A stretch of 8,265 nt of DNA, taken from IMG/VR virus record IMGVR_UViG_2690316348_000005; one strand, written 5' to 3'. The stretch's first letter is position 1. Each line of letters opens with the position of its first letter. The DNA is from a virus. Lineage: Duplodnaviria > Heunggongvirae > Uroviricota > Caudoviricetes. Positions 1,307 through 7,419 of this stretch are shown one piece after another. Made by a program: the position numbers and the translations under genes. The notes below the pieces were generated by a model. It had not been told where the DNA came from, did not search any database, and was given only the letters and a program-made list of their open reading frames with translations.

Positions 1307-1333
1307 AACCCGCTTCGGCGGGTTTTTGTTTTT
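1307..1333 (+). terminator. Rho-independent terminator downstream of hok
   Basis: Stem CCCGC (1309..1313), loop TTCG, stem GCGGG (1318..1322), followed by TTTTTGTTTTT. Confidence 0.75.
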
Positions 1334-1346
1334 ATTTTCAACGCGT

Positions 1347-1458: not shown

Positions 1459-1740
1459 ATGAAAATCGAAGAATTACGTGAAATTTTTAGTGAAGATGGC
1501 CTCTATACTGTGCGCGTTGAGAATGGCGCTATTGTCAGCCACTGCCTTCCAGACTACACAATTCTGATAATTCAGCCGTCTTTGCCAGCAGGCACGGGCG
1601 GCGCTCTCACGCATTTAAATCTGATTGGTACCAGCATCCCCCATGCACTGAAGAACAGGCCGAATGGCTCATTCAGTGTTACCGCAGGCGCGGATGCGAG
1701 GTTAAAAAAGCCCTTAGCCTCGACTACCGTCACTGGATAA
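1459..1740 (+). CDS. Hypothetical protein, about 93 aa; Rem-like by position between hok and the DUF968 gene
   Basis: ORF with ATG at 1459 (the ORF track starts at TTG 1456) and an AAGGA-like ribosome-binding site upstream. The identity is from synteny with the Qin prophage order, not from sequence recognition. Confidence 0.4.
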   Translation: MKIEELREIFSEDGLYTVRVENGAIVSHCLPDYTILIIQPSLPAGTGGALTHLNLIGTSIPHALKNRPNGSFSVTAGADARLKKPLASTTVTG

Positions 1741-1815
1741 TCTCCGTCAGGCTCCCTTACTCCGAACGGCCAACGCGTCCGTCCCGCACATTCCAGCAAC
1801 GGATCTGGAGGTAAT

Positions 1816-2874
1816 GTGCGGGTATTACTTCGACCTGTTCTGGTACCGGAACTCGGTCTGGTTATCGTTAAGCCAGGCCGTGAATCAATGTCAGCATTCC
1901 ATAACGGCAGAATACTGGTGGAGCCGGAACCAAAAAGCATGCGTAATCTGCCGTCCGGGGTCGTTCCTGCCGCTCGCCAGCCGCTGGTGGAAGACAAAAC
2001 ATTGCTGCCGTTTTTCAGTAACGCACGGGTGATTCGTGCTGCTGGTGGTGCTGGTGCATTGTCTGACTGGCTGTTGCGCCATATTAAATCCTGCCAGTGG
2101 CCACACGGCGATTATCATCACAGCGAAACCGTCATTCACCGTTATGGTACCGGCGCAATGGTGTTGTGCTGGCACTGCGACAACCAGCTGCGTGACCAGA
2201 CATCCGAATCACTCGAGCAACTTGCTCATCAAAACCTGTCAGCATGGATGATTGACGTCATCGGTCACGCAATAAGCGGTACGCAGGAGCGTGAATTATC
2301 TCTGGCTGAATTATCCTGGTGGGCGGTCCGCAATCAGGTGGCGGACGCGCTACCGGAAGCGGTATTACGTCGTTCGCTGGGGTTGCGTGCGGAAAAAATT
2401 CGCTCTGTGTACAGTGAAAGCGACATCATACCGGGAGAGCAGACAGCCACCAGCATACTGAAGCAGCGCACAAAAAATATTGCGTTACTGCCTCACGTCC
2501 ACCAGCAACAGAACCCACCACAGGAAAAGACGGTGGTCAGCATTGCCGTTGATCCGGAGTCACCGGCTCAGTATCTCCAGCGCCAGAAATCACAACGGGA
2601 AGAGATGCCTGTATACACGCGCTGGGTAAAAACGCAGAAATGCATGACGTGTGGCAATCAGGCAGATGATCCGCATCACATCATTGGTCATGGACTGGGA
2701 GGGATGGGAACAAAGGCTGATGATTTGTTTGTTATTCCGTTATGCCGTAAATGCCGTAACGAACTACATGCCGGAGTAAAAGATTTTGAAGAGAAACACG
2801 GCAGTCAGCTGTTGTTGCTGATTCGTTTTTTAATGCACGCGAGAAATTCGGGTGTTCTGAAGTGGAAAGCATAA
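1816..2874 (+). CDS. DUF968/YdfU-like prophage protein with a C-terminal HNH-like Cys/His motif, 352 aa
   Basis: Long ORF with GTG start at 1816 and a GGAGG Shine-Dalgarno 4 nt upstream. C-terminal CMTCGNQADDPHHIIGHG...IPLCRKCRNELH resembles an HNH/zinc-finger motif. The stop is immediately followed by the rusA ATG. Start codon is uncertain; an internal ATG near 1888 is an alternative. Confidence 0.65.
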   Translation: MRVLLRPVLVPELGLVIVKPGRESMSAFHNGRILVEPEPKSMRNLPSGVVPAARQPLVEDKTLLPFFSNARVIRAAGGAGALSDWLLRHIKSCQWPHGDYHHSETVIHRYGTGAMVLCWHCDNQLRDQTSESLEQLAHQNLSAWMIDVIGHAISGTQERELSLAELSWWAVRNQVADALPEAVLRRSLGLRAEKIRSVYSESDIIPGEQTATSILKQRTKNIALLPHVHQQQNPPQEKTVVSIAVDPESPAQYLQRQKSQREEMPVYTRWVKTQKCMTCGNQADDPHHIIGHGLGGMGTKADDLFVIPLCRKCRNELHAGVKDFEEKHGSQLLLLIRFLMHARNSGVLKWKA

Positions 2875-3255
2875 ATGACCGAGCGCATAGAATTTGTTTT
2901 ACCTTACCCGCCGACGGTGAACACTTACTGGCGTCGTCGTGGCAGCACATATTTTGTATCAAAAGCCGGGGAGCGTTATCGCCGGGCAGTGGCGCTTATT
3001 GTTCGCCAGCAGCGGCTGAAATTAAGCCTGTCCGGAAGGTTGGCAATAAAAATTATTGCAGAACCACCGGATAAGCGCCGCCGTGACCTGGACAATATTC
3101 TGAAAGCGCCGCTGGATGCGCTGACGCATGCGGGGTTGCTAATGGACGATGAGCAGTTTGATGAAATCAATATCGTTCGTGCTCAGCCAGTATCTGGTGG
3201 ACGTCTGGGGGTGAAGATTTATCCCATAATGCTTGAAGGGCAGGTCAAAAAATGA
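2875..3255 (+). CDS. rusA: RusA-family Holliday junction resolvase, 126 aa
   Basis: Translation carries the RusA-like core ...PPDKRRRDLDNILKAPLDALTHAGLLMDDEQ... with conserved acidic residues, and the size matches RusA. Sits directly upstream of the Q-like gene, as in lambdoid nin regions. Confidence 0.88.
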   Translation: MTERIEFVLPYPPTVNTYWRRRGSTYFVSKAGERYRRAVALIVRQQRLKLSLSGRLAIKIIAEPPDKRRRDLDNILKAPLDALTHAGLLMDDEQFDEINIVRAQPVSGGRLGVKIYPIMLEGQVKK

Positions 3256-4073
3256 AACTGGAAGATTTACCGAAATACTACTCCCCAAAATCCCCCGGCC
3301 TGACTGATGCATCGGCCTCAACGTCGAAAGATGCGCTGAGTATCACTGATGTGATGGCCGCGCAGGGCATGACACAGAATCGGGCTGAGATGGGGGTTTC
3401 TGCGTTCCTTGGGAAAATGGGCATTAGTATGAATGACAGAGAGCGGGCAACAGAATTGCTGACAGAATATGCACTCAGTCGGTGTGATCGCGTGGCGGCG
3501 TTAAGAAAACTCCCGGCAGAAATAAAACCGGCAGTGATGCGTATTATGGCTTCGTATGCGTTTGAAGATTATGCCCGTAGCGCGGCGAGCAAAAAACAGT
3601 GCCCCTGCTGTCACGGAAAAAAATTTATTGAAAGCGAGGTTTTTACAAACAAGATCCAGTATCCGGATGGTAAGCCGCCGGTATGGGCAAAGTGTACGAA
3701 AGGTGTGTATCCGTCTTACTGGGAAGAATGGAAAAAAGTCAGGGAGGTGGTAAAAGTTGCCTGTCCGGAGTGTGGCGGAAAGGGTGAGGTTTCCACCGCC
3801 TGTAAGGATTGCCGTGGGCGTGGTGTCGCCATTCATCGTGAAGAGTCGGTAAAACGTGGTATGCCTGTTATCAGAGACTGCCAGCGTTGTGGTGGTCGTG
3901 GCTATGAAAGACTACCATCAACGGAGGCATTTAATGCTATATGCGAGGTGACAAACCAGATAACACGCGCGTCATGGGAAAAAACAGTTAAGAAATTTTA
4001 TGATGCGCTGGTGACCCGGTTTGATATTGAAGAAGCATGGGCTGAGCGGCAGTTAAAAAAGGTAACTAGGTAA
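3252..4073 (+). CDS. Putative late-gene antiterminator Q-like protein with four CxxCxGxG zinc-finger repeats, 273 aa
   Basis: ATG overlaps the rusA stop (ATGA). Contains CPCCHGKK, CPECGGKG, CKDCRGRG and CQRCGGRG repeats. Lies immediately upstream of a pR'-like promoter whose initial transcribed sequence is ACGATGGG. The Q assignment is by position and zinc motifs, not by a confirmed homology match. Confidence 0.6.
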   Translation: MKLEDLPKYYSPKSPGLTDASASTSKDALSITDVMAAQGMTQNRAEMGVSAFLGKMGISMNDRERATELLTEYALSRCDRVAALRKLPAEIKPAVMRIMASYAFEDYARSAASKKQCPCCHGKKFIESEVFTNKIQYPDGKPPVWAKCTKGVYPSYWEEWKKVREVVKVACPECGGKGEVSTACKDCRGRGVAIHREESVKRGMPVIRDCQRCGGRGYERLPSTEAFNAICEVTNQITRASWEKTVKKFYDALVTRFDIEEAWAERQLKKVTR

Positions 4074-4114: not shown

Positions 4115-4154
4115 CGATGGGCGTTTTATGCCTGACGTTAGAAGAGTTTCTACA

Positions 4155-4178
4155 ACCCGCCGCCGAGCGGGTTTTTTA
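4155..4178 (+). terminator. tR'-like intrinsic terminator, about 65 nt downstream of the putative late transcription start
   Basis: Stem CCCGC (4156..4160), loop CGCCGA, stem GCGGG (4167..4171), then TTTTTT (4172..4177). Confidence 0.65.
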
Positions 4179-4297
4179 TGACTGAAATCGCGTCAGTACA
4201 GTAAACGCGCTGGTGGCGGTGAATACCTGTCTTTCAGCTTGCTGGCTTTTTCGACAAGAGTTATTGGTGTGTCACGTTAACCGGAAAAGGAAAAGAC

Positions 4298-4645: not shown

Positions 4646-5704
4646 ATGCTTAATACTGTAAAAATATCCAGTTGTGAGTTAATCAACGCCGACTGCCTGG
4701 AATTTATCCGGTCGTTACCCGAAAATTCTGTTGACCTGATAGTCACGGACCCGCCGTACTTTAAAGTGAAGCCTGAGGGCTGGGATAACCAGTGGAAGGG
4801 CGACGATGATTACCTGAAGTGGCTGGACCAGTGTCTGGCGCAGTTCTGGCGGGTGCTGAAACCTGCCGGAAGTCTTTACCTGTTCTGTGGTCATCGCCTG
4901 GCATCTGATATCGAAATCATGATGCGTGAACGCTTCAGTGTGCTGAACCATATTATCTGGGCGAAGCCGTCCGGACGCTGGAACGGATGCAACAAGGAAA
5001 GCCTGCGGGCGTATTTCCCCGCCACAGAGCGCATTCTGTTCGCGGAACATTATCAGGGGCCGTATCGTCCGAAAGATGCCGGGTATGCGGCGAAGGGCAG
5101 TGCACTGAAACAGCATGTGATGGCCCCGCTGATTTCTTACTTTCGTGATGCGCGAGCTGCCCTGGGGATAACGGCAAAACAGATTGCAGATGCCACAGGA
5201 AAGAAAAACATGGTGTCGCACTGGTTCAGTGCCGGTCAGTGGCAGTTGCCGAATGAAAGCGATTATCTGAAATTACAGGCGCTGTTTGCCCGGGTGGCAG
5301 AAGAGAAGCATCGGCGTGGTGAACTGGAAAAGCTCCACCACCAGCTGGTGGATACGTATACCTCACTGAACCGGCAGTATGCGGAGCTGCTGAGTGAATA
5401 TAAACATCTGCGGCGGTATTTTGGCGTGACGGTGCAGGTGCCGTATACCGATGTGTGGACGCATAAACCGGTGCAGTTCTATCCCGGGAAACATCCGTGC
5501 GAAAAACCGGCAGAAATGCTGCAGCAGATAATCAGCGCTAGCAGTCGTCCGGGTGACCTGATTGCAGATTTTTTCATGGGGTTGGGTTCGACAGTGAAAG
5601 CGGCACTGGCGCTCGGGCGTCGTGCAATTGGCGTTGAGCTGGAGACTGAACGTTTTGAGCAGACGGTTCGGGAAGTACAGGATTTAGTCAGCCAGAACGG
5701 ATGA
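4646..5704 (+). CDS. Orphan beta-class DNA methyltransferase (N6-adenine/N4-cytosine family, probably N6-adenine), 352 aa
   Basis: Catalytic motif IV DPPY (LIVTDPPYF) lies N-terminal to the SAM-binding motif I FxGxG (DLIADFFMGLGST), which is the beta-class order. No adjacent restriction endonuclease candidate is visible. Confidence 0.88.
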   Translation: MLNTVKISSCELINADCLEFIRSLPENSVDLIVTDPPYFKVKPEGWDNQWKGDDDYLKWLDQCLAQFWRVLKPAGSLYLFCGHRLASDIEIMMRERFSVLNHIIWAKPSGRWNGCNKESLRAYFPATERILFAEHYQGPYRPKDAGYAAKGSALKQHVMAPLISYFRDARAALGITAKQIADATGKKNMVSHWFSAGQWQLPNESDYLKLQALFARVAEEKHRRGELEKLHHQLVDTYTSLNRQYAELLSEYKHLRRYFGVTVQVPYTDVWTHKPVQFYPGKHPCEKPAEMLQQIISASSRPGDLIADFFMGLGSTVKAALALGRRAIGVELETERFEQTVREVQDLVSQNG

Positions 5705-5744
5705 TATTGAAGAATTAATTACGCGTCGTTATTATGCGGCTCCC

Positions 5745-5820
5745 GGCCCTTTAGCTCAGTGGTGAGAGCGAGCGACTCATAATCGCCAGGTCGCTGGTTC
5801 AAATCCAGCAAGGGCCACCA
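5745..5820 (+). tRNA. ileZ: tRNA-Ile2-like, anticodon CAT (presumed lysidine-modified, reads AUA)
   Basis: Manual cloverleaf: 7-bp acceptor GGCCCTT/AAGGGCC, D-arm with GG, anticodon loop CTCATAA, T-loop TTCAAAT, encoded CCA. Overall resemblance to E. coli ileX. The Ile-versus-Met call rests on that resemblance. Confidence 0.8.
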
Positions 5821-5827
5821 TCACATA

Positions 5828-5904
5828 CCGCCATTAGCTCATCAGGAAAGAGCGCCAGCCTTCGAAGCTGGCTGCGCGGGGTTCAAGTCCCCGATGGCGG
5901 TCCA
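5828..5904 (+). tRNA. argN: tRNA-Arg, anticodon TCG
   Basis: Manual cloverleaf: acceptor CCGCCAT/ATGGCGG (C1-G72), anticodon stem CCAGC/GCTGG, loop CTTCGAA, T-loop TTCAAGT, encoded CCA. The gene symbol is by position in a 933W-like ileZ-argN-argO cluster and is tentative. Confidence 0.75.
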
Positions 5905-5917
5905 TTATCTGCATCAT

Positions 5918-5994
5918 GCGTTGTTAGCTCAGCCGGACAGAGCAATTGCCTTCTAAGCAATCGGTCACTGGTTCGAATCCAGTACAGCGCGCCA
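5918..5994 (+). tRNA. argO: tRNA-Arg, anticodon TCT (reads AGA)
   Basis: Manual cloverleaf: acceptor GCGTTGT/ACAGCGC with a U4-G69 wobble, anticodon stem ATTGC/GCAAT, loop CTTCTAA, T-loop TTCGAAT, encoded CCA. The gene symbol is by position and is tentative. Confidence 0.8.
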
Positions 5995-6458: not shown

Positions 6459-6650
6459 ATACATATCTGGATTATCACCTGTTACGGTAAAAAGTGATTG
6501 CTTACTGTTTTTGTGAATGGCATTGCAGCAGCCGGATAATGTCAGTGCTGGCTGACGGTGTGCTGGTGGCGGGTGTGGTGGTTGTTGCTTTCCCGTTGCT
6601 GAAAAAGAAAACGCCAGACTGTTAGCCGGGTATCAGTTAGCGGGAGAAAT

Positions 6651-6855
6651 TTTTAAATACTTCACAATTCAGGCGGTTGACTGTTGTCTGGTTTGCGGGG
6701 AGTTTGTTAAAAGAAACTGGCATGGTGAATCCCCCTGTGCGGAGGGGCAATCAGCGAGTAGGTATATGGGATAATCGCGGATTCAGGTGCTGGTACTGAA
6801 TTCACCGGGAGGCACCCGGCACCATGCAATGGCACATAGCGCCACTCTCCAGCCC
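6651..6855 (+). repeat. Direct repeat B, copy 1 (about 205 bp), GC-rich and structured; truncated just before the terminator that ends copy 2
   Basis: Matches 7215..7419, identical over the last ~165 bp with about 6 mismatches in the first ~40 bp. Contains hairpins such as CCCCCTGTGCGGAGGGG. Confidence 0.85.
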
Positions 6856-6928
6856 AAAGTACAGGATTTAGTCAGCCAGAACGGATGATATTGAAGAATT
6901 AATTACGCGTCGTTATTATGCGGCTCCC

Positions 6929-7004
6929 GGCCCTTTAGCTCAGTGGTGAGAGCGAGCGACTCATAATCGCCAGGTCGCTGGTTCAAATCCAGCAAGGGCC
7001 ACCA
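6929..7004 (+). tRNA. ileZ: tRNA-Ile2-like, anticodon CAT, second copy
   Basis: Identical to 5745..5820. Confidence 0.8.
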
Positions 7005-7011
7005 TCACATA

Positions 7012-7088
7012 CCGCCATTAGCTCATCAGGAAAGAGCGCCAGCCTTCGAAGCTGGCTGCGCGGGGTTCAAGTCCCCGATGGCGGTCCA
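7012..7088 (+). tRNA. argN: tRNA-Arg, anticodon TCG, second copy
   Basis: Identical to 5828..5904. Confidence 0.75.
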
Positions 7089-7101
7089 TTATCTGCATCA
7101 T

Positions 7102-7178
7102 GCGTTGTTAGCTCAGCCGGACAGAGCAATTGCCTTCTAAGCAATCGGTCACTGGTTCGAATCCAGTACAACGCGCCA
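7102..7178 (+). tRNA. argO: tRNA-Arg, anticodon TCT, second copy with a Watson-Crick U4-A69 pair
   Basis: Identical to 5918..5994 except G69 to A (position 7171), which converts the U4-G69 wobble into U-A. Confidence 0.8.
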
Positions 7179-7192
7179 CACTTATTTTCCCT

Positions 7193-7218
7193 GGCTCGCT
7201 TTTGCGGGCCTTTTTTTT
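7193..7218 (+). terminator. Intrinsic terminator immediately after the second tRNA cluster
   Basis: Stem GGCTCGC / GCGGGCC (one G-U pair), loop TTTT, followed by TTTTTTTT (7211..7218). There is no equivalent after the first tRNA cluster. Confidence 0.7.
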
Positions 7219-7419
7219 AAATGTCTCACAATTCAGACGGTTGACAGTTGTCTGTTTTGCGGGGAGTTTGTTAAAAGAAACTGGCATGGTGAATCCCCCT
7301 GTGCGGAGGGGCAATCAGCGAGTAGGTATATGGGATAATCGCGGATTCAGGTGCTGGTACTGAATTCACCGGGAGGCACCCGGCACCATGCAATGGCACA
7401 TAGCGCCACTCTCCAGCCC
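7215..7419 (+). repeat. Direct repeat B, copy 2 (about 205 bp)
   Basis: See copy 1. This copy begins with a perfect TTGACA (7242..7247) and is followed by a terminator. Confidence 0.85.

Follow-up and report, generated by a model that had tools for sequence, protein, structure and literature searches.

The locus studied here raises the question of whether a DUF968 gene that runs directly into the gene of the Holliday-junction resolvase RusA encodes a nuclease or zinc-finger protein with a role in recombination or DNA processing, as an earlier note on this DNA had suggested. The window, i.e., the whole stretch of DNA that was analysed, comprises 8,265 nucleotides of a Caudoviricetes virus record (IMGVR_UViG_2690316348_000005), and all features described below lie on its plus strand. 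The DUF968/YdfU-family gene (1816..2874) encodes 352 amino acids, with a GTG start and a TAA stop, and represents the Shigella sonnei allele. The GTG start is correct, since it is the same as that of a 95%-identical homologue in RefSeq and residues 1-20 are conserved throughout the family. DUF968, rusA, and Q point in the same direction and lie close together: the DUF968 TAA codon (2872-2874) abuts the rusA ATG at 2875, as the note had described, and the TGA of rusA and the ATG of Q share the sequence ATGA (3252-3255). The rusA gene (2875..3255, 126 aa) was identified by Pfam (PF05866, E 1.5e-16, 61.6 bits versus a cut-off of 22.8). Its product shows 41% identity to K-12 RusA and retains the Asp and Lys residues D71, D73, K77, and D92, which align with the catalytic residues D70, D72, K76, and D91 of the K-12 protein. 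The Q-type antiterminator gene (3252..4073, 273 aa; Pfam Antiterm PF03589, E 1.6e-53) also encodes a DnaJ-type CXXCXGXG zinc finger. Upstream, a small conserved gene (phrog_1212, 1542..1814) is separated from the DUF968 start by a gap of 1 nt; this copy is 5'-truncated and has CTG as its sole start. Two terminator-like hairpins followed by T-runs were found, one 3' of hokD and upstream of the DUF968-rusA-Q block (1307..1334) and one just 3' of Q (4154..4183); the latter is a candidate Q-modified late terminator.

The element that carries these genes is a decayed, IS-riddled lambdoid Shigella sonnei prophage located beside ompW. The exact window protein bears the name "DUF968 domain-containing protein [Shigella sonnei]" and was found on at least 1000 contigs. 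Among 5426 complete E. coli genomes, 4543 contain a match to the DUF968-rusA stretch. The DUF968-rusA-Q segment is an ordinary, previously catalogued block of lambda-like prophages. The closest named relative is YdfU (b1560, PF06147) from the K-12 cryptic prophage Qin, which is 78% identical over 348 residues and has the same two-domain layout. Its context resembles that of the window, with hokD and rem upstream and Q downstream, but rusA is absent between ydfU and Q. Thousands of genomes of E. coli and Shigella carry genes of the YdfU type, which are still "y-genes".

The presence of a DUF968 protein with an HNH-like motif was verified by profile searches, one of the checks that the note had suggested. 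Pfam DUF968 (PF06147) matched residues 160-344 with an E-value of 2.6e-62 (210.3 bits, cut-off 27.8), HNHc_6 (PF16784) matched residues 261-328 with 28.0 bits, just past its cut-off of 26.6, and PHROG 96 ("HNH endonuclease") spanned residues 1-349 of 352 (E 1e-162). The Pfam and PHROG scores of DUF968 and its neighbours are far beyond chance. The motif reads C276-x2-C279 ... H287-H288 ... D303 ... C310-x2-C313-R314-x3-H318 and lies within the C-terminal domain, which makes up about the last 110 residues (2551..2871). All four cysteines of the predicted structural zinc site (CxxC...CxxC/H) are present: C276 (2641-2643), C279 (2650-2652), C310 (2743-2745), and C313 (2752-2754). The predicted active-site positions are H287/H288 (2674-2679), D303 (2722-2724), R314 (2755-2757), and H318 (2767-2769). 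In the AlphaFold model, strands at residues 285-288 and 306-309 and a helix at 311-319 form this region with a pLDDT of 95-98. The top Foldseek matches in the PDB, Cas5-HNH, IscB, Cap5, and Gme HNH, are all HNH domains, at a non-significant level (E 0.75 or worse). A moderate match to YbcO (PDB 3g27) was obtained with hhalign (probability 81%, E 1.2e-5), in which H288, D303, and the position of H314 of the family are paired with the His, the Asp, and the "CSACH" His of YbcO. YbcO/3g27 was also the best and sole match of the C-domain profile among PDB sequences (E 0.09); searches of the PDB sequences with the single sequence and with the full-length profile yielded nothing meaningful. Taken together with the conservation described below, the profile matches and the predicted structure show the C-terminal domain as a putative zinc-stabilised His-Me (HNH) finger related to YbcO. 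The family motif can accordingly be read as an H-H pair providing a metal ligand and the predicted general base, an Asp at the "N" position of HNH, and an H-x3-H providing putative metal ligands.

YbcO, the DUF1364 protein of DLP12 and phage 82 annotated as a "putative nuclease", appears to share its His-Me finger core with DUF968, and both families were placed in His-Me group 7 (PMC5714182). With 96 aa, YbcO consists of the finger alone, lacks the 245-residue N-terminal part of DUF968, and possesses three of the four zinc cysteines. Its gene in DLP12 overlaps rusA directly 3', with Q further downstream, after ylcG. The spacing HH(102/103)-x14-N118-x8-H127-x3-H131 of the colicin E9 DNase, read straight off both sequences after the E9 sequence had been verified, parallels HH-x14-D-x10-H-x3-H of DUF968. 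The hhalign comparison of the C-domain profile with the colicin E9 motif was not significant, so this comparison rests on motif spacing; moreover, DUF968 has a Cys4 zinc site whereas the colicins have none. The likeness is a mechanistic analogy only. The C-terminal finger of the window protein narrowly passed the cut-off of HNHc_6 (PF16784), to which the Orf-HNH proteins of Listeria and Staphylococcus phages belong. In those proteins the N-terminal domain is Orf(NinB)-like (PMC4118853), as it is in the Gram-positive "DUF968" (Curtis et al., 2014); the N-terminal domain of the enterobacterial DUF968 proteins showed no similarity to lambda Orf or YbcN. In the searched literature, no experimental characterisation of the DUF968 family and no biochemistry of any DUF968 or DUF1364 protein was found (a search for "YbcO" returned superconductor papers only), which agrees with the note's view that the function is poorly defined. 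For this reason, nuclease activity and substrate are inferred throughout.

The neighbourhood of the gene was surveyed at 80 DUF968 loci from different Enterobacterales species, which were collected in a genome scan with an 11-sequence alignment. The near-constant neighbour of DUF968 is Q: in 72 of 79 loci the gene directly downstream encodes a Q-type antiterminator or DUF1133, and these Q neighbours span four unrelated Q families. At 60 of the 80 loci RusA was found within about 2.2 kb of DUF968; the gene order varied, and the two genes were directly adjacent at 22 loci. The count of 60 was obtained with an iterated HMM and Pfam, tblastn alone giving an undercount of 49/80. Co-occurrence of DUF968 and rusA, which the note had listed as a check, holds for 60/80 species-level loci, and the order DUF968-rusA-Q for 78 of 80 viral contigs with the window's RusA type, but rusA is lacking at 20 loci as well as in K-12 Qin, so DUF968 and RusA are not obligate partners. 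The abutting DUF968-rusA order, from which a recombination role had been suggested, is limited to 3/80 species-level loci, all from the Escherichia/Shigella clade. Outside this clade rusA lies upstream of DUF968, usually with an antirepressor gene in between. In E. coli and Shigella prophages the order DUF968-rusA-Q is fixed, as judged by the 78 of 80 contigs. Since nin regions are mosaics, adjacency is weak evidence for joint function, and that of DUF968 and rusA stems from the cassette structure no less than from functional coupling.

Lambda Rap (NinG) is a branch-specific HNH-type endonuclease with a His-Me finger, encoded a few genes upstream of Q, and its partner is NinB/Orf, not RusA. 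NinG or NinB was found at none of the 80 DUF968 loci; conversely, RusA or DUF968 was found at none of the 80 loci anchored on lambda NinG, a test confined to loci whose identity to lambda NinG was 98% or higher. At these loci NinB was present in 77/80 and the window's Q type in 28/80. In the loci examined, Rap/NinG thus never occurred with either DUF968 or RusA, and this mutual exclusivity makes Rap a plausible functional analogue. Homology to lambda NinG (PF05766) was tried and rejected, with an hhalign probability of 8% over 18 columns and no Pfam NinG match, and NinG was assigned to His-Me group 24, DUF968 to group 7 (PMC5714182). It has been described that rap or rusA occur as alternative resolvases in the nin region and that DUF968 domains are fused to RusA, Erf, and Rad52 (PMC4118853).

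Gene position also bears on a packaging function. Many phage HNH proteins act in association with the terminase, and the PHROG label "HNH endonuclease" would suit a protein that, like HK97 gp74, aids cos cleavage. The DUF968 gene, however, lies in the delayed-early nin region directly 5' of Q and not beside the terminase genes, no terminase was among the neighbours identified in the 80 loci, and the protein has a large additional N-terminal domain. A terminase-associated role is therefore disfavoured and appears very unlikely.

The constancy of Q as a neighbour could alternatively indicate a non-catalytic zinc-finger protein that binds DNA as a regulator, for instance a late-gene or antitermination accessory of Q in which the HNH scaffold serves for binding alone. 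Three members (P0200, P0205, and P0223) have lost both the HH pair and the helix His while keeping the cysteines, which is a hint of a catalysis-independent function; one homologue has been annotated as a phage transcriptional regulator (PMC5714182), and the S. sonnei R314 allele is intact and widespread. On the other hand, neighbours from four unrelated Q families speak for a conserved position rather than a specific partnership, and the persistence of R314 says little because the S. sonnei prophage genes are decaying. HH, D, and H are kept in nearly all members: H288 (with H287), at the general-base position, is near-invariant in the family, D303 is invariant across 32 homologues, and H288, D303, and H314 as a set are invariant or nearly so. 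Sub-lineages without the zinc cysteines retain HH..D..H, which indicates selection on catalysis and not on the fold alone. A purely regulatory role is thus regarded as improbable.

The N-terminal 200 residues (1816..2415), which lie outside the Pfam model, are shown to be a conserved domain in their own right, and this domain contains a second Cys/His cluster. This cluster comprises C93 (2092-2094), H101/H102, C118 (2167-2169), and W119-H120-C121-D122-N123; across 32 diverse homologues C93 and C118 never vary, and W119 and D122 hardly do. We infer that the cluster binds zinc. The AlphaFold models behind this domain are confident (pLDDT 86.6 and 89.0). Foldseek revealed no significant structural relatives of the N-domain model in the PDB or BFVD and no significant PDB match of the full-length model, and the N-domain profile matched no PDB sequence. 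The domain contains a beta-beta-alpha unit at residues 105-125, and the possibility of a degenerate second HNH finger that arose by internal duplication was considered. BLASTP gave a suggestive E-value of 0.045 (LCWHCDNQL versus LCRKCRNELH), but the domain-versus-domain profile comparison reached a probability of 1% and strand 1 of the N-domain lacks a conserved His; this idea was rejected as unsupported. An Orf/NinB-like domain was rejected as well (hhalign gave a probability of 0.1% for lambda Orf as well as for YbcN, both single-sequence templates of limited sensitivity). Finally, fusions of the N-domain to tail-fibre/tip proteins were dismissed as evidence of modularity, as they appear to be deletion chimeras of decayed prophages. 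A low-confidence linker (residues about 201-245, 2416..2550; pLDDT <50 at 224-240) connects the two domains. Upstream of residue 245 the protein is 80-88% identical to K-12 YdfU, and in the C-terminal domain only 60%, which indicates a mosaic whose boundary is marked by the linker region.

Considering all of these observations, we find it somewhat probable that the gene, as part of the delayed-early nin operon in a lambdoid prophage, codes for a YdfU-type phage nuclease that processes DNA, the window copy being probably weak or dead. Upon induction, N-type antitermination would take transcription past the upstream terminators, and DUF968, RusA, and Q would be made from a single message with translational coupling at the TAA|ATG and ATGA junctions. 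The N-terminal domain would place the HNH finger on phage DNA intermediates (branched, nicked, or D-loop), which the finger might nick, while true four-way junctions would be resolved by RusA. In this way the DUF968 protein and RusA may fill the slot occupied in lambda by NinB(Orf) and NinG(Rap). A more far-reaching version, which we regard as tentative and rather doubtful, is that YdfU-type proteins constitute distinct two-domain structure-specific phage nucleases, in which an undescribed zinc-binding N-terminal fold recognises branched or damaged DNA and delivers it to a minimal HNH finger. With RusA they would form a recombination and repair cassette in place of the Orf/Rap pair of lambda, and dead alleles (S. 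sonnei R314, the HH-less sub-lineage) would persist through an additional function for which DNA binding suffices.

In the uninduced prophage the block is expected to be silent. This view is supported by the terminators in the window, by the very strong Rho-dependent terminator upstream of ydfU in K-12 Qin (PMC9160355), and by the promoter insertions needed for expression of rusA in DLP12. The Qin terminator has been counted among those silencing "toxic prophage genes" (PMC9160355), HNH domains are frequent in toxins and defence systems (PMC5714182), and genes for a hok toxin and a DNA methylase are found near DUF968 in the window. These points would fit a nuclease, toxic when expressed, that is directed against the host or a competitor (host takeover, superinfection exclusion, or anti-defence). 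However, "toxic" was used generically in that study and not demonstrated for ydfU, the PADLOC defence models matched neither DUF968 nor RusA, an immunity-like partner is absent, and the steady companions, namely RusA, antirepressor, and Q, belong to recombination and regulation. Such an activity seems to us a minor possibility.

A recombination role had already been proposed by Jablonska et al. (2017; PMC5714182) for the His-Me finger group of DUF968 and DUF1364/YbcO with neighbours RusA and Q. Added here are the 80-locus survey, the NinB/NinG exclusion, the gene order in E. coli and Shigella, and the Arg314 allele of Shigella sonnei. Should YdfU act in the RusA cassette as a nuclease partner or as an alternative, the picture of recombination-intermediate processing in lambdoid phages would be completed and a new DNA-recognition domain gained.

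The earlier reading as a putative HNH-type nuclease or zinc-finger protein holds in so far as the domain appears to be a genuine His-Me finger, but the window copy may be inactive. The helix His directly after the second Cys pair is replaced by Arg (codon 314, 2755..2757, CGT instead of CAT/CAC), a lineage-specific change at a predicted metal-ligand position; H318 is kept. Arg was present in 6/6 S. sonnei-type loci (L002-L007), whereas His occupies this position in all 72 other loci with a readable motif, in 119/119 close cluster representatives, and in 72/75 viral contigs; the other three contigs have Arg and are 100% identical to the window protein. K-12 YdfU has H313-H314 where the window has C313-R314, and YbcO likewise carries His at the aligned position. 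Every other examined relative that has kept the active site has His at 314. Because R314 replaces a conserved metal-ligand His, the window copy is probably catalytically impaired. Judged by its sequence, the protein probably has little or no nuclease activity left and is a relic of a cryptic prophage that is itself silent. There is about an even chance that the gene in the window is a decaying relic with no current function, in a silent remnant block whose adjacency was inherited and not maintained. In S. sonnei-type chromosomes IS1 and IS3-family elements flank and interrupt this type of prophage, the upstream small gene is truncated as described, H314R is fixed in the lineage, and fragmentary or chimeric DUF968 ORFs are numerous in databases. 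Against this, none of the three ORFs (DUF968, rusA, and Q) is truncated, and the catalytic residues of RusA are intact. The relic interpretation concerns the window copy only and is compatible with a YdfU-type DNA-processing nuclease as the function of the family. For the window itself, the result is mainly one of annotation, namely a known block in a decayed Shigella prophage with a probable active-site knockout allele. The Arg at position 314, a His in the relatives, had been overlooked in the first reading of the sequence.

In the window, the DUF968 ORF (1816-2874, plus strand, 352 codons, GTG start) is followed with zero gap by the rusA ORF (2875-3255, plus strand, 126 codons), whose stop is overlapped by the start of the Q antiterminator ORF (3252-4073, plus strand, 273 codons). 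Pfam assigned the three products to DUF968 (E 2.6e-62, residues 160-344), RusA (1.5e-16) and Antiterm (1.6e-53), respectively, and the gene order described in the earlier note was thus borne out. The GTG start is shared with a RefSeq homologue 95% identical to the DUF968 protein, and residues 1-20 are kept even in distant homologues in the alignment. The complete order of hokD, a rem remnant, DUF968, rusA, Q, a small HTH gene, a DNA methylase and tRNA genes is that of the nin/late-regulation region of a Qin/PPompW-type lambdoid prophage. At residues ~160-220 the Q protein contains a CXXCXGXG zinc-finger repeat of the DnaJ type (Pfam DnaJ_CXXCXGXG 30.1 bits, slightly under the 32.7 cut-off; NCBIfam DnaJ and anti-TRAP matches weak). 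This repeat is common to 13 of the 14 Q proteins of the Antiterm type that are encoded after DUF968.

The HNH-like motif noted from the sequence was recovered by profile searches. The DUF968 protein passed the Pfam HNHc_6 threshold (28.0 bits versus a cut-off of 26.6, residues 261-328), and the PHROGs family phrog_96, annotated as HNH endonuclease, spans residues 1-349 (E 1e-162). An alignment of 32 full-length homologues (25-92% identity), from a search with 1270 matches at E <= 0.001 in 1.84 billion representative proteins, revealed two conserved blocks, the C-terminal one with the consensus WVKxQPCxxCGxxADDPHHxIGHGxGGMGxKAHDLFxxPLCRxxHxELH. In the homologue alignments C276 and D303 are invariant and H288 and H314 nearly so, as is H318 in the alignment of the C-terminal domain, while C279, C310 and C/H313 are present in most homologues. 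The AlphaFold model (mean pLDDT 86.6) folds this region into a beta-beta-alpha unit (strands 285-288 and 306-309, helix 311-319). The family profile matched YbcO, the small finger protein of prophage DLP12 (DUF1364; PDB 3g27), with 81% probability (E 1.2e-5), H288, D303 and H314 lining up with the His, Asp and "CSAC-H" His of YbcO, which was also the top PDB sequence match of the C-domain profile (E 0.09). A Foldseek search of the model against PDB gave no significant match; its top-ranked small-domain matches, all non-significant, were HNH domains (Cas5-HNH, IscB, Cap5 and Gme HNH). The spacing HH-x14-D-x10-H-x3-H, read by eye, resembles HH102/103-x14-N118-x8-H127-x3-H131 of colicin E9, the sequence of which was checked; a profile comparison with colicin E9 was not significant. 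We conclude that the motif very probably marks a true His-Me finger with a predicted Cys4 (or Cys3His) zinc site. By analogy, H288 would be the general base, with H287, H314 and H318 as likely metal ligands.

Two sub-lineages in alignments A1 and A5 of the homologues have lost opposite parts of this finger. The zinc cysteines are lost and HH..D..H is kept in P0175, P0186, P0219, P0229, P0240 and P0256, whereas P0200, P0205 and P0223 keep all four zinc cysteines, have lost HH and the helix His and are probably catalytically dead. Zinc site and active site thus evolve independently of each other.

The window protein itself has Arg at position 314 (codon CGT, 2755-2757, plus strand), where its relatives have His. 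The residue is His in 119/119 close cluster representatives, in 72/72 other loci with a readable motif and in K-12 YdfU (cryptic prophage Qin) and YbcO. Among viral contigs, 72 of 75 encode His314, and the remaining three encode an Arg314 protein with 100% identity to that of the window; Arg314 is also encoded at each of the six S. sonnei-type chromosomal loci. From this distribution Arg314 is therefore real and fixed in the S. sonnei-type lineage. The substitution removes the counterpart of the metal ligand on the helix of HNH enzymes, and we predict from the sequence that the protein would be a weak or dead nuclease, making the window copy a likely inactive relic.

At least 1000 contigs encode the exact 352-aa protein, under the name [quoted passage not shown], and its chromosomal copies adjoin ompW in a prophage remnant broken by IS1 and IS3-family elements. 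The best identity to 1816-3255 among complete E. coli genomes was at most 98.2%. K-12 YdfU is 78% identical to the window protein overall, with 80-88% identity as far as residue 245 but just 60% over the C-terminal domain; the gene is therefore a mosaic with its junction in the linker.

Residues 1-200 lie outside the Pfam model yet are conserved. Among the homologues, C93 and C118 do not vary and W119 and D122 hardly do, within the motif CQ...Y[CH]H...LCWH[HC]DN. Modelled by itself (pLDDT 89), this domain forms a small sheet, helices and a long helix (131-154), and a beta-hairpin-helix at 105-125 bears the Cys/His cluster. Structure searches against PDB and BFVD gave no match (best E 2.4 and 0.27, probabilities <= 0.1), nor did a search of PDB sequences. 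Neither a duplicate of the C-terminal finger (not detectable, 1% probability) nor an Orf/NinB-like domain (0.1% probability) was recovered; the Gram-positive proteins discussed by Curtis et al. (PMC4118853) are Orf/NinB-like, unlike this domain. We infer a second, uncharacterised zinc-binding domain. In P0146, P0174, P0176, P0226 and P0147 the N-terminal 150-225 residues continue in frame into tail-tip (J), tail-fibre, collar or glycine-rich domains, most likely as chimeric ORFs from large deletions linking the nin region to tail genes in decaying prophages.

The tight DUF968-rusA linkage stressed in the earlier note held as co-occurrence, whereas the abutting order proved to be a feature of one clade. 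In 80 DUF968 loci from different Enterobacterales species, RusA lay on the same strand within ~2.2 kb in 60 (iterated HMM; 11 divergent copies Pfam-confirmed) and was without a match in 20. In 19 loci it immediately preceded the DUF968 start or overlapped it, in 35 it lay upstream across a gap of 60-1300 nt and in three further upstream; it lay downstream in three, and among the 79 directly downstream ORFs only 3 were RusA (E. coli, S. flexneri and E. albertii). The other downstream ORFs included Phage_antitermQ (36), Antiterm (14), Phage_antiter_Q (9) and DUF1133 (13-17). The gap held a single ORF in 31 of 32 loci examined, mostly antirepressor-type (Rha+KilAC (/ANT) in 23 loci, KilA-N in seven), its 3' end typically overlapping the DUF968 start codon. 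Such an antirepressor-type gene, at ~3270-4004 of loci L029-L087, is present in most non-Escherichia loci. K-12 Qin lacks RusA (order rem-ydfU-ydfT), and in DLP12 YbcO overlaps rusA. Among E. coli/Shigella phage contigs with the window RusA type, 78/80 have DUF968 as the gene immediately preceding rusA and the window's Q type following it. NinG (Rap) and NinB (Orf) were found in 0/80 DUF968 loci. Conversely, 80 NinG-anchored contigs, a narrow sample with every NinG at least 98% identical to that of lambda, contained NinB in 77, the window's Q type in 28, and RusA, DUF968 or YbcO in none. Overall, DUF968 (or YbcO) makes up a cassette, in most cases together with RusA, that alternates with NinB plus NinG upstream of interchangeable Q modules. 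Enterobacterial-type DUF968 prophage segments, with 43-78% identity to the query, also occur in loci L013, L016, L028, L059 and L067, whose assemblies are labelled Veillonella parvula MAG, Geobacteraceae MAG, Caulobacter segnis MAG, Vagococcus sp. and Actinomycetes MAG; misbinning or contamination probably accounts for them.

The DUF968-rusA-Q arrangement is an ordinary gene block that has already been described. Jablonska et al. (2017; PMC5714182) assigned DUF968 and DUF1364/YbcO together to His-Me finger group 7, listed RusA, Q and antirepressor as neighbours and hypothesised a NinG-like recombination or repair role, with which the annotation and the suggested role in recombination or DNA processing agree. 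Curtis et al. (2014; PMC4118853) reported fusions of DUF968 domains with RusA, Erf and Rad52 and described rap and rusA as resolvases that alternate in the nin region. The earlier note called the family's function poorly defined; no experimental studies of YdfU or DUF968 turned up in the literature search. We lean slightly towards a family-level mechanism in which DUF968 would act as a structure-specific HNH nuclease of a phage recombination cassette. Our additions are modest: counts of the neighbouring genes (a Q gene nearly always follows, RusA accompanies 75% of loci, and NinB/NinG were never present), the lack of an Orf-like domain, an N-terminal domain without a structural relative in PDB/BFVD, and the Arg314 allele.

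Terminator-like hairpins follow hokD (1307-1324) and Q (4154-4173), and the TAA|ATG and ATGA junctions suggest translational coupling within the block. In K-12 a very strong Rho-dependent terminator was measured upstream of ydfU (PMC9160355), and DLP12 rusA expression requires promoter insertions (PMC4118853). In the lysogen the block probably stays silent.

Two frames overlap upstream of DUF968 (1456-1814). The Rem-like 94-aa ORF (1456-1740) begins MMKIEELREIF... like Rem, and past residue ~26 it is an out-of-frame reading of the DNA of phrog_1212, a conserved small gene. The phrog_1212 frame (1542-1814) has CTG as its sole start in the window, and ~156 nt present in locus L001 are absent between 1533 and 1549. 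This frame is conserved as protein in 22/80 loci, from other genera; the Rem-like frame occurs only in Escherichia-level DNA.

Between Q and the tRNA genes lies a 352-aa N6/N4 DNA methyltransferase (4646-5704; best PADLOC match the type II methyltransferase model PDLC03265, E 4.6e-163). No restriction gene adjoins it, and it is presumably an orphan methylase of the phage. Downstream, a three-tRNA block (CAT anticodon, tRNA-Arg TCG, tRNA-Arg TCT) is present in two 300-nt copies (5673-5972 and 6857-7156), 100% identical and 1184 nt apart, and a second repeat of 219 nt (6637-6855 and 7201-7419) is 95% identical, its copies 564 nt apart. These repeats look like a recent segmental duplication.
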